DNA of 64,000 bases from Parachlamydiales bacterium. Lineage in GTDB: Bacteria > Chlamydiota > Chlamydiia > Chlamydiales > CALOCV01. Shown here piece by piece: positions 6,501 through 17,872 of this stretch. The notes below the pieces were generated by a model. It searched no databases. It was not told where the DNA came from and saw only the letters and a program-made list of their open reading frames with translations. Position 1 is the stretch's first letter, and each line of letters starts with the position of its first letter. The DNA lies in contig CALOCV010000027.1 of the NCBI GenBank assembly GCA_942491955.1, positions 250-64,249 on the forward strand, given 5' to 3'. Position numbers and translations under genes: made by a program.

Positions 6501-9258
6501 GCAATCAAATGACCTTCTTCACCGGCCCCTCCGGCTCGGGAAAGACCTCCCTCGCCCTCGAAACGATCTACGCCGAAGGGCAACGCCGCTATACCGATTC
6601 CCTCTCTCCCTACGCACGCCAATTCGTGAAACAGATGCCAAAACCAAAAGTCGGCTCCGTCCGTGGCCTCACCCCCGCTGTCGCCATCGAACAAAAAATC
6701 CACGCAGGCAACCCCCGCAGCACCGTCGGCAACATGACAGAAACTTACGACTACCTCCGCATCCTCTACGCCCGTATCGGCATCCCCCACTGCCCCGAAA
6801 CGGGAGAAGTGATCCAAGCCATCGGAAAACAAACCGTCATCGAACAAGTCATGGAATGGAAAGAGGGAGCGAAAATCGAAATCCTCGCCCCACTCGAAGT
6901 GAAAAAAGGAGAGAAATGGGAAAACCTCATCGCCCGCTTCCGACGACAAGGATTTATCCGCATTCGTCTCAACGACGTCCTCTACGACATGGACCAAGAT
7001 GAAGAGACTCTGCTCCATGCCTACGACAGAAAACGACAAAATGCCCTCTTCCTCGTCGTCGACCGCCTTATCGTCAACCCCACCATCCACAACCGCTTAG
7101 CAGAGGCTGTCGAAACCGCTACCAAAATCGGCGAACAAAAACTCGTCATCCTCCGCGATGGGAAACCTCTCTTCTTCAACCTCTCCTTCTCCGTTCCCAG
7201 CACAGGAAAATCCTACCCCGAAATCACTCCTCAAACCTTCGCATTCAATACACAGGAAGGAATGTGCATCGACTGCCAAGGACTCGGCTACCAGTACGGA
7301 GCCAATTTTGCCCACCAACCCGAATGGCAAAACCTCTCTATCCTATCCATCCTCCGCTCCATCTGGAAAAATATCCGTTCCAACCACGTCTTTCAATGGA
7401 TCTACCTCTTCTTAGAACAAGAGGGGATCGACCCACACACACCCTTAAAGAATCTCTCCTCCACACAGAAAAATCTCGTTATGAATGGATCGCAAGAAAA
7501 CGCCTTCTACTTCACTCCAGAAGGCCTGCGCTTCCAATGGGTCGGACTCAATCACGTCTTCGCTCGCCTTGCGAAACAAGGAAGGAATGTTTTCCGCGAA
7601 GCCGTTATCCCCTACCTCGACACCTACGTCTGTCCCTCGTGCCAAGGCGCTCGCATCGGTCCATTGGGACGCCACGTCACCATCCACGACCTGCCTATCC
7701 ATGCTTTATGCGCCCTACCCCCCCCCCCCCCCCCCCCCCCCCCATCGAACAAACCCTCTCCTTCCTCCACTCCCTGCAACTCACCCCTATACAAAAGAAA
7801 ATCCTCGCCGAAACAGAAAATCAACTCCTCCATCGCCTCTCCTTCCTCAACGACGTCGGCCTCGGCTACCTCGCCCTCGACAGAAGAGCCCCTACCCTCT
7901 CTGGTGGAGAGACCCAACGGATCCGCCTAGCAAAACAACTCGGCAGCGGACTCACCGGCCTCCTCTACATCCTCGACGAACCCACCATAGGACTTCACCC
8001 CCACGACAACGCCCGCCTCAATACCGCCCTTCACCAACTCAAAACGCTCGGCAACACCCTCCTCCTCGTCGAACACGACCCTCTCACCCTCGTCCACGGC
8101 GACTACTTCGTCGACTTCGGCCCCAAAGCAGGAACAGCTGGAGGATACATCACCGCCCAAGGTACCCTTGCAGAGATCGAAGACAACCCCAATTCCCTCA
8201 CCGGTGCCTACCTCTCCGGAAAACAATCAATCCCCACCCCTAAAAAACGTCGCCCCATCAATAAAGGCTCCCTCACCATCACCAAAGCCTCCCTCCATAA
8301 TCTGAAACAACTCTCCCTCAAAATCCCCATCTCCACCCTCACCTGCTTCACAGGCGTCTCAGGCTCAGGAAAATCGACCCTCCTCGAAAATATCCTCCTC
8401 CCCGCACTCGAAAAAGGCCTCGCCGCACGACAAAAAACCATCACCATCGAACAAACCAAAATCAACGGCCTCGACCACTTCGACAAAGTCCTCTCCCTGT
8501 CACAAAACCCAATCGGCCTCACCTCCCGCTCCGATGTCGGTACCTATACCGACCTCCTCCCACGCCTCCGCGACCTCTTCGCCGCCCTCCCCGAAGCGAA
8601 GATGCGAGGCCTCACCCCAGGCCACTTCTCCTACAACCACCGACGAGGGATGTGCTCCCACTGCTGGGGCATGGGCTATCGCAAAGTCGAGATGCACTTC
8701 CTCCCCCCCATCCGCGTCACTTGCGAACAATGCCACGGCCTCCGCCTCAATCCCGTCAGCCTCCTCGTTCTCTACAAAGGGAAAAACTTTGGACAATACC
8801 TCGACCTCACCATCGACGAGGCAACAGAGGTCTTCTCCGCCCACCCACGCATCCTCCGCGTCCTCAATACCCTACAATCGGTCGGCCTGGGATACCTCAA
8901 AATCGGCCAAGAGATGGCCTCCCTCTCCGGCGGCGAAGCACAAAGGATCAAACTCTCCCGAGAACTGGCCAAACGCTCCACAGGGAAAACCATCTACCTC
9001 CTCGATGAACCCACAACAGGCCTCCACCCTAACGATATCGCCACGCTCCTTACCGTCCTCCACAAACTCATCGATAAAGGAAATACCGTCGTCCTCATCG
9101 AACACAACCTCGATATGATCAAAAATGCCGATTACATCATCGACCTCGGCCCCGAAGCGGGCGAAAAGGGGGGCTTCATCATGGCAACAGGTACCCCAGA
9201 ACGCATCGCCCAAAACAAAGACTCCCTCACCGCGCGGTACTTGCGCGGATGTTTGTAG
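3536..9258 (+). CDS. uvrA: Excinuclease ABC subunit A, chlamydial double-length form; frame broken at C26 tract
   Basis: Four ABC ATPase modules (GVSGSGKS x3, GPSGSGKT; LSGGE; LDEP) and CxxC zinc fingers. ORFs 3536..7930 and 7264..9258 join at ...HALCALP/IEQ..., giving ~1900 aa. Confidence 0.95.
7718..7743 (+). repeat. Poly-C tract (26 C) inside uvrA
   Basis: Direct count; 26 is not a multiple of 3, so the frame shifts. Confidence 0.95.
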
Positions 9259-9271
9259 GGTGTGTCATCAA
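9256..9271 (+). repeat. Solo MITE-B terminus overlapping the uvrA TAG stop
   Basis: TAGGGTGTGTCATCAA vs TAGGGCGTGTCATCAA at 19811 (1 mismatch). Confidence 0.7.
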
Positions 9272-15737: not shown

Positions 15738-17872
15738 GAAGGATTTTTTACAGCTTGTATAACGATATCTGGTGTGAGTACTTGAGGCAAAATTTGTGGT
15801 TCTTTGTGATTGGATGTGTAGAGGACATAGAGAGGGATGCTATTGCGTCCATATTGTCGAAGAGCTTCTGTGACGATGGGGTCACGTTTTGTCCAATCGG
15901 CTTTCATCTTAACCACTCCTTTATCTTTGAAAGCTTGTTCCACGGAGGGGGCCGATAGGACTATATGATTGGCTTTGCAAGAGAGGCACCATTCCGCTGT
16001 GAAGTCGATCAAGACGGGCGTTCCTGCCTGGCGGAGTTCTTCGACTTTTTCTGGGGAGAAGGGGGTCCATCCGTGGGAGCGATCGGCTTGGGTGATGATG
16101 CCGTTCTCGGATCCGCCTGCCCATTCATCGGTTGTTGAGGTGTAGGTGAGGTAGCTGCCGGCGAGGAAGAAGAATCCGGTAAAGAGGTAAGCGAGGTTAC
16201 GGGAGAGTTTTTTCGACATGGGTGTGCTGAATTTGCCGTAGATCCAGGAGCCTACAGCGAAAGCAAGGAAGGCGACCATGAGGACGACGACGGCGCTGAG
16301 GTTGGTTTCGGCACCGAAGACCCAGATGAGCCATAGTACGGTTGCGAGGAGTAAGAAACCCATGATTTCTTTGAAGACGACCATCCAGGTGCCTGGCTTG
16401 GGCATGAAGCGGAGGAGTTTTGGGAAGGCGGCCAATAGGAGGTAGGGGAAGGCCATTCCTGCGCCGAGAAAAGTGAAAACGAGCATCGCTTTGGGGGCGG
16501 CGACGGTAAAGGCAAAGCCAACGGCGGTACCTAGGAATGGGCCGGTACATGGGGTAGCGATAGCGGTGGCTAAGACGCCGCTCAAGAAAGAGCTGAGATA
16601 TCCCGTTTGTTTTGCTGAGACTTGGCCTTGACCGGCAATGGATGCAACGGAGGTGCCGAGTTCGAAAACACCAAAAAGGCTTAAGCTGAAGACGAAGAGG
16701 ACTCCAGCAAGGATAGCGACAAAGAGGGGGTCTTGGAGTTGGAAGCCCCAGCCGACAGCGCTTCCGTAGGCTTGGAGGGTGAGCATGACACCAGCAAGGG
16801 TCCAGAAGGAAAGGAGGACACCGAGGGAGAAGAAGAGGCCGTGTTTAAGAGTTAGGGACCGGCTTTGTCCAGACATCTTCATGAAGCTCATCACTTTAAA
16901 GGAGAGAACGGGCAAAACGCAAGGCATGAGATTGAGGAGCATTCCTCCTGCGAAGGCAAGGATGAGGATCCAGGCGAAGCTTTCTTCGGCGACGGAGATG
17001 CCTGCACGATCGATAGTTCCTATGGCATTTTCTTGTTGGAGAAGAGAAGAGATTTCGAGGCTCTTTTGATTCCCTAGGACAAGCACTCCTTTAATTTCTT
17101 CGAGATGGGCTTTATGGGGAAGATCTTTCAGGACGATAGCTGTTTCGTTGGCATCGCTATCGTGATACGTTTCTAAGGTAGCGGCAGTTGGATCGGTAGG
17201 ATCCTCTCCTTCGGGGATGAAGACCACTTCATGGGGTTGTACGAGAGGGAGTCCATTACCGCGTAGGGTAATTCTTCCTTCAGATCGTGTGGCGTGGACG
17301 GCATCATTTTTCTCTGGGAGTTTGGCTCGCATGGTATTGAATGTGGTTTTATGTGCTTCGTGAGGGGTGGGGGTATTGGGAGAGAGGGCGATAGCGAGAT
17401 CGGCATGCGATTCTCCGGGGAGACAATTCGTATCGGAGCAGATGAGCCATCGGATATCGGCACCGATCGTTTCTGCGACACCTAATGGGGCTTCTTTGGG
17501 TGGTGTAAGCTGGGCAAGGAGGAAGGTTTCGCCACTATAACCGTATCCGATAGCGGCATCCGAGGTGAATTTTTCGGGGGTTGGCCAGTAGATGGGACCT
17601 GCTTCCCATCCTTTAGGGAGTTGCCAATCGATGGTGAGGGGCATACCGGTTTCTCCGGGATTTTTCCAATAGGTATGCCAAGATGGGGGGACTTGTATCC
17701 GTACAGCGACCCAGAAGGGGCGACCGGGTTGGGCGGTATTTTCTTCTTGAACAATTTCGATCGGAACAGATGTTTCGTTAGCGGTATTGGCGGAGAGAGG
17801 CAGGGTTGCCACGATGCCGATGAATAAAAAGGCGCAAAGAGTTAATGAAATCCATTGTTGAATTGAACGCAT
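15734..17872 (-). CDS. dsbD: Thiol:disulfide interchange protein DsbD
   Basis: WHTYWKNPG N-domain, LNLMPCVLPV and ATPCTGP TM cysteines, C-terminal thioredoxin WCLSC. Confidence 0.9.
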   Translation of the reverse strand: MRSIQQWISLTLCAFLFIGIVATLPLSANTANETSVPIEIVQEENTAQPGRPFWVAVRIQVPPSWHTYWKNPGETGMPLTIDWQLPKGWEAGPIYWPTPEKFTSDAAIGYGYSGETFLLAQLTPPKEAPLGVAETIGADIRWLICSDTNCLPGESHADLAIALSPNTPTPHEAHKTTFNTMRAKLPEKNDAVHATRSEGRITLRGNGLPLVQPHEVVFIPEGEDPTDPTAATLETYHDSDANETAIVLKDLPHKAHLEEIKGVLVLGNQKSLEISSLLQQENAIGTIDRAGISVAEESFAWILILAFAGGMLLNLMPCVLPVLSFKVMSFMKMSGQSRSLTLKHGLFFSLGVLLSFWTLAGVMLTLQAYGSAVGWGFQLQDPLFVAILAGVLFVFSLSLFGVFELGTSVASIAGQGQVSAKQTGYLSSFLSGVLATAIATPCTGPFLGTAVGFAFTVAAPKAMLVFTFLGAGMAFPYLLLAAFPKLLRFMPKPGTWMVVFKEIMGFLLLATVLWLIWVFGAETNLSAVVVLMVAFLAFAVGSWIYGKFSTPMSKKLSRNLAYLFTGFFFLAGSYLTYTSTTDEWAGGSENGIITQADRSHGWTPFSPEKVEELRQAGTPVLIDFTAEWCLSCKANHIVLSAPSVEQAFKDKGVVKMKADWTKRDPIVTEALRQYGRNSIPLYVLYTSNHKEPQILPQVLTPDIVIQAVKNPS

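Follow-up and report, generated by a model that had tools for sequence, protein, structure and literature searches.

Convergent transcription units, each C-rich on its own coding strand, account for a local GC-skew flip in a chlamydial contig

Within a 66-kb contig from an uncultured member of the Chlamydiae, we analysed a stretch of 64 kb (the window) that carries a sharp local flip in GC skew between uvrA on the plus strand and the dsbD–tatD pair on the minus strand. The flip is a matter of geometry, and of this we are very sure: the two units converge, and each holds an extreme surplus of C relative to G, and of A relative to T, at synonymous sites of its own coding strand. Because each convergent unit is C-rich on its own coding strand, the plus strand has an excess of C on the left and of G on the right. 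We are just as sure that the bias comes in whole transcription units and takes its polarity from the coding strand, a pattern shared by rplU–rpmA–obg, rpoN and a degT-type aminotransferase gene. The best explanation as a whole joins this geometry to a transcription-polarised pressure and does not make hairpins at the unit ends its source; we consider it probable, if only just. As for the cause, we infer, tentatively, an asymmetry of mutation or repair that is polarised by transcription.

A preliminary description of this DNA had placed the flip at 7700–16500, centred on hairpin elements, and had supported it with four counts along 60-nt lines. Those counts are exact (C29/G9 at 8041, C7/G29 at 15361, C13/G14 at 3541 and C23/G9 at 26761), and GC skew, measured in 1-kb windows, reaches −0.46 at 7501–8500 and +0.335 at 15001–16000. 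The interval given for the flip is too narrow, since the skewed blocks comprise all of uvrA (3536–9258) and of dsbD–tatD (14961–17872). Nor do the hairpins form its centre: a 5.5-kb unskewed insert of low GC content (9367–14844; GC 0.36–0.44, skew near 0) separates the blocks, and a hairpin has skew on one of its sides but not on the other. Nor does the flip stand alone, since values as extreme occur at 20001–21000 (+0.355, obg) and at 29501–30500 (−0.49, rpoN). Cumulative GC skew declines overall from 0 to −7, bottoming out locally near 12 kb and 30.5 kb, with one more dip near 20 kb.

Results

The bias is concentrated at the third codon position of the coding strand, which supplies 80–100% of the G-minus-C deficit, positions 1 and 2 being near normal. 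The frequencies of C and G at this position (C3 and G3) are 0.43–0.69 and 0.02–0.23, respectively, with G3 at or below 0.13 past the first ~65 codons of uvrA, and A3 equals or exceeds T3. Against synonymous codons drawn at random according to the usage in 24 unbiased genes of the window, the observed coding-strand skew lies 7–17 standard deviations (s.d.) from expectation, and 9–17 s.d. for uvrA, tatD and dsbD. Units of both orientations are C-rich on the coding strand, namely uvrA and rpoN on the plus strand and dsbD–tatD, the obg operon and degT on the minus strand. C-ending codons lead in almost every codon family (CTC 0.67, GTC 0.71, ATC 0.82, TTC 0.75), and Lys, Glu and Gln prefer codons ending in A.

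The left block consists of uvrA alone, on the plus strand. Its first 1394 codons (3536..7717; Pfam UvrA_inter, UvrA_DNA-bind and ABC_tran) have C3 of 0.43–0.59 and G3 of 0.07–0.23 in sliding codon-position counts, and position 3 accounts for 100% of the G-minus-C deficit. The last 505 codons (7744..9258) are the most extreme part of the gene, with C3 of 0.56–0.66, G3 of 0.02–0.13 and a GC skew at codon position 3 (skew3) of −0.65 to −0.94; here 80% of the deficit falls at position 3 and synonymous resampling gives z −14. The two parts are separated by a poly-C tract of 26 nt (7718..7743), which encodes a poly-Pro linker between the UvrA halves and at which the reading frame shifts, the open reading frames (ORFs) 3536–7930 and 7264–9258 overlapping in different frames. 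One added C would rejoin both halves in frame, and the tract could be either a homopolymer length error or a real, slippage-prone sequence. The long, internally duplicated uvrA is of the chlamydial type.

The right block is formed by tatD (14961..15737, minus strand; Pfam TatD_DNase) and dsbD (15734..17872, minus strand; Pfam DsbD_N, DsbD_TM and Thioredoxin_7), which constitute one transcription unit; here and throughout, the ends of transcription units were taken from the gene layout. On the coding strand, tatD has C3 of 0.47–0.69 and G3 of 0.03–0.10, with 82% of the deficit at position 3, and dsbD has C3 of 0.35–0.62 and G3 of 0.05–0.13.

The same bias recurs in further units. The rplU–rpmA–obg operon (20169..21809, minus strand) ends at a pair of small repeats (19811–20145) and is bounded on its other side (21810–21864) by a divergent 2-hydroxyacid-dehydrogenase gene. 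Its ribosomal-protein genes rplU and rpmA have a skew3 of −0.56 and −0.47, as against −0.88 in obg, −0.79 in tatD and −0.78 in the C-terminal part of uvrA. The sigma-54 gene rpoN (29171..30647, plus strand), whose start at 29171 opens a typical sigma-54 region I, climbs in C3 from 0.27 to 0.63. Its reading frame is broken at an A9 run (29788–29796); this is the second homopolymer frameshift in the window after the C26 tract of uvrA, which suggests assembly error. Convergent with rpoN is the degT-type aminotransferase gene (30828..32006, minus strand), in which C3 rises from 0.25 to 0.51 at a G3 of 0.05–0.11 and which has a hairpin of its own (30746–30764). The last ~100 codons of a tolA-like gene carry the bias as well.

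The earlier statement that this is not the general codon usage of the genome holds. The core genes tolQ, tolR, nth, mnmE, fmt, lpxA, fabZ, lpxC and lnt are unbiased, with C3 and G3 both about 0.2, and znuABC of the window is only mildly biased. Genes that point away from the junctions have weak plus-strand skew (tolQ +0.06, 2-hydroxyacid-dehydrogenase gene +0.10, mnmE −0.17), and the background strand effect is below 0.1.

The skewed units have abrupt edges. In the 89-bp gap between the divergent dsbD and tolQ (17873..17960), plus-strand skew3 drops from +0.48 to +0.04. Across the 55-bp gap between rplU and the 2-hydroxyacid-dehydrogenase gene it falls from +0.60 to +0.23 and then to −0.18. 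Related loci keep the order tolQ–dsbD–tatD as well as the gene order around the second gap, and because of this conservation the skew boundaries are not assembly chimeras. Non-coding DNA beside the hairpin elements is unskewed (+0.11 at 9259–10055, +0.04 at 14280–14960 and +0.02 at 30648–30827). Plus-strand skew3 is −0.66 to the left of the element at 9341 and −0.33 to its right, where a protease gene has the same sign as uvrA; for the element at 14870 the values are −0.02 to the left, in an ATPase gene, and +0.86 to the right.

Intensification of the skew toward the hairpins had also been described. A broad trend of this kind is present, but C3 peaks at ~7.7–8.7 kb and 15.3–15.5 kb and drops before the stop codons. 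Within all five biased units, C/(C+T) at position 3 climbs from 5′ to 3′, with per-kilobase slopes that spread about six-fold, from 0.22 in the 5.7-kb uvrA to 1.35 (~1.3 for rpoN and degT, which span 1.2–1.5 kb). The gradient therefore scales with the length of the transcription unit and not, as proposed earlier, with kilobases from an element: a common slope per relative position gives a log-likelihood of −1522.3 with little heterogeneity (χ2 2.3, 4 degrees of freedom), whereas a common slope per kilobase from the junction, with the same number of parameters, fits much more poorly (log-likelihood −1534.9, χ2 27.4, 4 degrees of freedom). A process spreading from a site should show a fixed length scale, and its absence argues against spread from the hairpins. 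Unbiased units have no gradient, and step and linear within-unit profiles fit similarly, so that they do not discriminate. The choice of base at biased third positions does not depend on the 3′ neighbour and does not avoid CpG; the only context effect is a lower C preference after A.

To place the bias among relatives, dsbD and tatD were compared across 11–12 related chlamydial loci per gene and Obg with 44 orthologs. The related loci show no bias in dsbD and at most a mild one in tatD (to −0.48), and neither gene is more divergent from its relatives than tolQ. The rplU–rpmA–obg operon is unbiased both in Waddlia and in L202, the relative with the closest Obg. The best database matches of Obg and MnmE, all chlamydial, are only ~61% identical, and for this reason substitutions cannot be polarised. 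The sole other record of the organism is a 1.4-kb Logan contig (run ERR9669565) that matches positions 20073–21440 without a difference; exact-protein look-ups for tatD, tolQ and rplU returned no further DNA from it.

One case in a relative separates coding strand from repeat position. In the window all strongly biased genes point at junctions, so that the side of the junction and the direction of the gene are confounded. In L202, znuA (6609–7968; JGI 3300020871, Ga0207128_1060) has C3 of 0.70 and G3 of 0.02 at its 5′ end, a bias that fades along znuA–znuC–znuB. This patch adjoins a tRNA gene and two ~115-nt copies of a GC-rich hairpin repeat, and the gene points away from the repeats. Its polarity is thus opposite to that of the window relative to the repeats and the same relative to the coding strand. 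The case favours the coding strand; coming from another organism, it is support and not proof.

The encoded proteins are shifted too. We used an index of amino-acid composition (the fraction of P+T+H+Q minus that of G+V+E+D, as z against orthologs), which is +7.0 for Obg (44 orthologs), +2.8 for TatD, +1.55 for DsbD and −0.06 for the control tolQ. In Obg, Thr is raised by 5 s.d., His, Gln, Ser and Phe are up and Val and Glu are down, a composition shared by none of the 44 orthologs. In MnmE, encoded on a mildly G-rich coding strand, the shift is in the opposite direction (−2.2). An Akashi-type test on obg, dsbD and tatD revealed no enrichment of C-ending codons at conserved residues (Mantel–Haenszel odds ratio 0.81, z −1.1). 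The amino-acid shift, the negative Akashi test and the stronger bias of uvrA, tatD and obg than of ribosomal-protein genes all argue against ordinary translational selection and for a nucleotide-level pressure on one strand. To that extent the nucleotide-level pressure proposed in the preliminary description is borne out.

Hairpin elements lie just past, or across, the stop codons of uvrA, tatD and rpoN, each in the sense of its own gene. Directly 3′ of the uvrA stop there is a stub of a small repeat (9259..9312, plus strand) with a GGGYGTGTCATCAA end and a long predicted hairpin, with related copies at 19811–20145 and 24531–24557. It is followed by the element proper (9326..9366, plus strand), a GGGG..CCCC stem, then GGCTGC-TTC-GCAGCC and TTGCATTTGTC, terminator-like in the sense of uvrA. 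The tatD side has an inverted copy (14845..14960, minus strand) with G-run/C-run hairpins, then GGCAGC-TTC-GCTGCC and TTGCATTTGTC, likewise terminator-like in the sense of tatD. A third copy of the family covers the 3′ end of rpoN (30587..30661, plus strand) with GGCCGC-TAAC-GCGGCC and TTGTATA. All three share a plan of G-run/C-run stems, a 6-bp stem and TTGYAT, and two of them were listed as terminator-like in a consensus scan. The middle pair of the 6-bp stem varies with pairing kept (T:A in GGCTGC/GCAGCC at 9326–9366, A:T in GGCAGC/GCTGCC at 14845–14886 and C:G in GGCCGC/GCGGCC at 30587–30661), compensatory changes which hint that the hairpin structure may be under constraint. Among 120 matches to the hairpin 17-mer GCWGCCTTGCATTTGTC in a scan of metagenome contigs, none had hairpin context, and all are chance matches.

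The other biased units end differently. Downstream of obg there are two tandem copies of a small repeat of another kind, and degT ends at a separate hairpin. The obg pair consists of a 164-nt repeat with GGGCGTGTCATCAA ends (19811–20145), between the tolA-like gene and obg, and stubs of the same family lie at 9259–9312 and 24531–24557. As far as their sequence allows, the hairpins are best read as 3′-end terminators and small mobile repeats at the ends of units, not as the source of the skew.

Convergent junctions without an element were to serve as controls in the preliminary description, which saw no obvious flip by eye at two of them. The flip there is indeed small: plus-strand skew jumps by only +0.35 at 42.36 kb and +0.16 at 50.81 kb, and strong flips in the window occur only at convergent junctions that bear repeats or hairpins. 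In all, the jump is +1.28 to +1.53 at element-bearing junctions (n = 3) and +0.16 to +0.51 at element-free junctions (n = 4).

Further repeats and genes were noted in and around these regions. A 168-nt repeat with terminal inverted repeats ATACCAATTCCGGTAAGAAA is present at 3275–3442 and 14555–14722 (97% alike), with a partial copy at 44910–44996; one full copy lies 94 nt upstream of uvrA and the other, within the insert, downstream of tatD, so that they bracket uvrA and the insert in inverted orientation. The insert also holds, by Pfam, genes for a trypsin-like protease (10056–11912, minus strand), psiE (12174–12632, minus strand) and an AAA ATPase (12852–14279, plus strand). A 30-nt direct repeat (9438–9467 and 9993–10022, 97% alike, 555 nt apart) flanks a small ORF (9682–9993) in the part of the insert beside uvrA, and the two copies might mark where a small insertion begins and ends. 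Two copies of a perfect palindrome with a 30-bp stem flank a transposase gene of IS200/Y1 type whose product has a DnaA-C-like helix-turn-helix (43108–44055, in the region 43048–44141), and a third copy is found just downstream of mnmE (26202–26279). Judged by sequence, the transposase and palindromes look like a REP-associated tyrosine transposase (RAYT) with repetitive extragenic palindromic (REP) elements. Elsewhere, two neighbouring large paralogues of 815 and 848 aa with weak Sel1-repeat matches occupy 45856–50800, and 1.4 kb without an ORF (52937–54373) contains nested inverted repeats (53600–53895, 53997–54073 and 53325–54136). The 7-nt unit GCATTTA is repeated five times in tandem (62139–62175) inside the 111-nt gap between a DUF3332 gene and dapD. 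A search of the window for RNA families found a single tRNA gene, tRNA-Phe (GAA).

Discussion

The coding-strand account supposes a nucleotide-level pressure, polarised by transcription, that acts on some units of this lineage. The pressure would amount to net T-to-C and G-to-A or G-to-pyrimidine change on the non-transcribed strand or, equally, to A-to-G and C-to-T change on the transcribed strand. It might stem from lesions that escape transcription-coupled repair or from error-prone patch synthesis on the transcribed strand, and would have to be strong enough to alter amino-acid composition. A bolder version is locally targeted, transcription-polarised hypermutation, somehow tied to the GC-rich hairpin repeats at unit ends, in which selected units are driven to 50–70% C and below 10% G at synonymous sites of the coding strand, their proteins are reshaped and the units differ between related genomes. 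We think this possible but unlikely.

Several observations weigh against a transcription-polarised mutational pressure. Classical transcription-associated asymmetry in bacteria, enterobacteria included, is C-to-T change on the non-transcribed strand, which has the opposite sign. The data comprise only 64 kb of this genome and, from another organism, a single case that discriminates. ZnuA of L202 has the position-3 bias but no amino-acid shift in a reciprocal test of ZnuA from the window and L202. The gradient rises from 5′ to 3′ in the window and falls in L202 znuACB and in g862 of L004. Biased third positions have no clean mutational signature of neighbour context. The four NAY families show the weakest preference for C, and split purine boxes favour A, in agreement with the wobble rules for G34 and U34; this would be expected under translational selection too, as would the normal G3 in the first 30–65 codons of uvrA and rpoN. 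Operon spacers are 0–6 nt long and the 3′ untranslated regions are filled by repeats and hairpins, which leaves no transcribed non-coding stretch long enough to check for bias outside codons. Strong bias at 3/3 repeat-bearing and 0/4 element-free junctions is a link that this account leaves unexplained.

Because of this link, the idea that the hairpins are recurrent sites of nicking, breakage, replication restart or R-loops, imposing origin-polar mutation that decays with distance on both sides, keeps a small probability, although we find it very improbable. Besides the junction contrast, it would account for the rise in C toward the junction in 5/5 biased units and for the slight deviation, in the direction predicted, of tolQ, the 2-hydroxyacid-dehydrogenase gene and mnmE, all of which point away; a RAYT/IS200-type nicking transposase is, moreover, encoded in the window. 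The elements are nevertheless one-sided, with the gene to the right of 9341 of the wrong sign. The skew sits at coding-strand position 3, adjoining non-coding DNA has none and it collapses within 55–89 bp at promoters; no fixed length scale is seen, and C3 drops just before the elements. The polarity of L202 znuA relative to the repeats is the reverse of that required, and mnmE ends at a perfect palindrome with a 30-bp stem and lacks such bias, so that this part of the preliminary description is unsupported. As that description noted, the sign change has the polarity of an origin. An origin-like process is unsupported for a skew of which 80–100% falls at position 3 of the coding strand and which ends with the unit. 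An origin or terminus, a recent inversion under strong replication skew, or an assembly artefact, which a metagenome contig with two homopolymer frameshifts might raise, can be regarded as effectively refuted. Cumulative skew has three local V-shaped minima in 32 kb and no single global sign change; the window holds no perfect DnaA box and no cluster, only scattered matches with one mismatch, and no dnaA or dnaN by Pfam; and the background strand effect stays under 0.1. An independent Logan contig is identical over 20073–21440, and a chimeric join is implausible at boundaries that fall in unique, syntenic promoter gaps. Recombinational import, in which segments beside shared repeats were replaced from an unsampled related chlamydia with C3-rich codon usage genome-wide, would suit the presence of repeats or a tRNA gene in the intergenic DNA beside the patches, in the window as in L202, the difference in patch genes between relatives and the fit of step models, about as good as that of linear gradients. 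We give it little credence, since the boundaries fall exactly in short promoter gaps with gene order conserved, and G3 depletion spans whole units while C/(C+T) is graded in each. Divergence is also ordinary (dsbD and tatD against tolQ; Obg and MnmE at a like identity), no Obg ortholog shares the composition, and import would only shift the question onto the donor.

Selection on the mRNA or on translation, taken together, is unlikely in our estimate, though not greatly so, and each form on its own is improbable, translational selection the more so of the two. Translational selection would make C-ending codons (G34 tRNAs) and A-ending codons (U34) optimal in highly expressed or long units, with the rise along a gene reflecting the cost of processivity errors and strong hairpins marking highly transcribed units. 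The codon families would fit, with C preferred in nearly all pyrimidine-ending families, most weakly in NAY, and A in Lys, Glu and Gln; rplU and rpmA are biased in the same direction, early codons are weaker, units rise along their length and uvrA, the longest gene, is among the most biased. Against this, uvrA, tatD and obg exceed the ribosomal rplU and rpmA, orthologs including the ribosomal-protein operon are unbiased and the set of biased genes differs between relatives. Conserved residues are not enriched in C-ending codons, amino acids are shifted, and the core genes fmt, lpxA, lpxC and fabZ are unbiased. Selection on the mRNA itself could favour C-rich, G-poor transcripts with C- or A-ended codons that are cheap, barely fold or are especially visible to Rho, in particular units that end at convergent junctions. 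A polarity that follows the transcript, is bounded by the unit and reaches amino-acid choice would agree with this, as would the published excess of C over G at 4-fold sites (PMC4844684) and the within-gene gradients of fungi (PMC3315797). Against it, A is preferred over T, the reverse of the 'cheap U' trend in PMC4844684. The biased set is lineage-specific, and no functional logic joins uvrA, dsbD, tatD, obg, rpoN and degT. The effect is also extreme for an organism that is expected to have a small effective population.

Two further candidates were tried and rejected. Antisense read-through from the convergent partner as a mutagen fails because the would-be source genes are weakly skewed and L202 znuA has the wrong geometry. 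GC-biased gene conversion fails because G3 falls and does not rise.

If the bias is mutational, a natural mutation pressure would be confined to single transcription units, override replication skew and alter proteins, at different genes in related genomes, with consequences for our view of how local mutation rates depend on transcription, repair and hairpin-forming DNA. If it reflects selection on codons or mRNA, the case is of unusual strength for an intracellular bacterium and involves no new principle. In such genomes, methods that take a local GC-skew flip for an origin, an inversion or foreign DNA would go badly wrong.

Among known systems, a replication-origin switch has in common with the window the passage of the plus strand from C-rich to G-rich, left to right; here, unlike at an origin, the change is local, repeated, specific to codon position, bounded by units and absent from non-coding DNA. 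The hairpins resemble REP elements, bacterial interspersed mosaic elements (BIMEs) and intrinsic terminators in being GC-rich stem-loops right after stop codons, in gene sense and in several copies with compensatory stem change, and a RAYT-like transposase is present in the window. They differ in a weak T-tail (TTGCATTTGT), and the family at uvrA, tatD and rpoN is distinct from the 30-bp-stem palindromes beside the transposase. A possible lead is mutagenesis that depends on Mfd and transcription-coupled repair, which is reportedly promoted by non-B DNA motifs. It would link hairpin DNA to transcription and to changes specific to one strand, within transcribed DNA only, although that process is not known to reach over kilobases or to scale with the length of a unit. 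That such a skew is described in the chlamydial genome papers on Estrella and Protochlamydia naegleriophila was not borne out. Translational codon bias also acts at the third position and is weaker in early codons, and C- and A-ending codons would match Watson–Crick pairing with G34 and U34 tRNAs, but the bias described here does not peak in ribosomal-protein genes, is neither conserved among orthologs nor enriched at conserved residues, and comes with a shift in amino acids.

The closest parallel is transcription-associated coding-strand skew. At 4-fold sites, 71.5% of prokaryotes favour C over G, increasingly so at higher expression (PMC4844684), and transcription-linked within-gene skew gradients that affect amino acids occur in fungi (PMC3315797). 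Common to these and to the window are polarity with the transcript, location at synonymous sites, reach into amino-acid choice, a gradient and C in excess of G. The skew in the window is far larger (skew3 of −0.6 to −0.95), affects a minority of units, differs in its set of units between related genomes and favours A over T. As C over G at synonymous sites and within-gene gradients have both been described already (PMC4844684, PMC3315797), we class the bias in the window as an extreme, patchy form of this known coding-strand skew.

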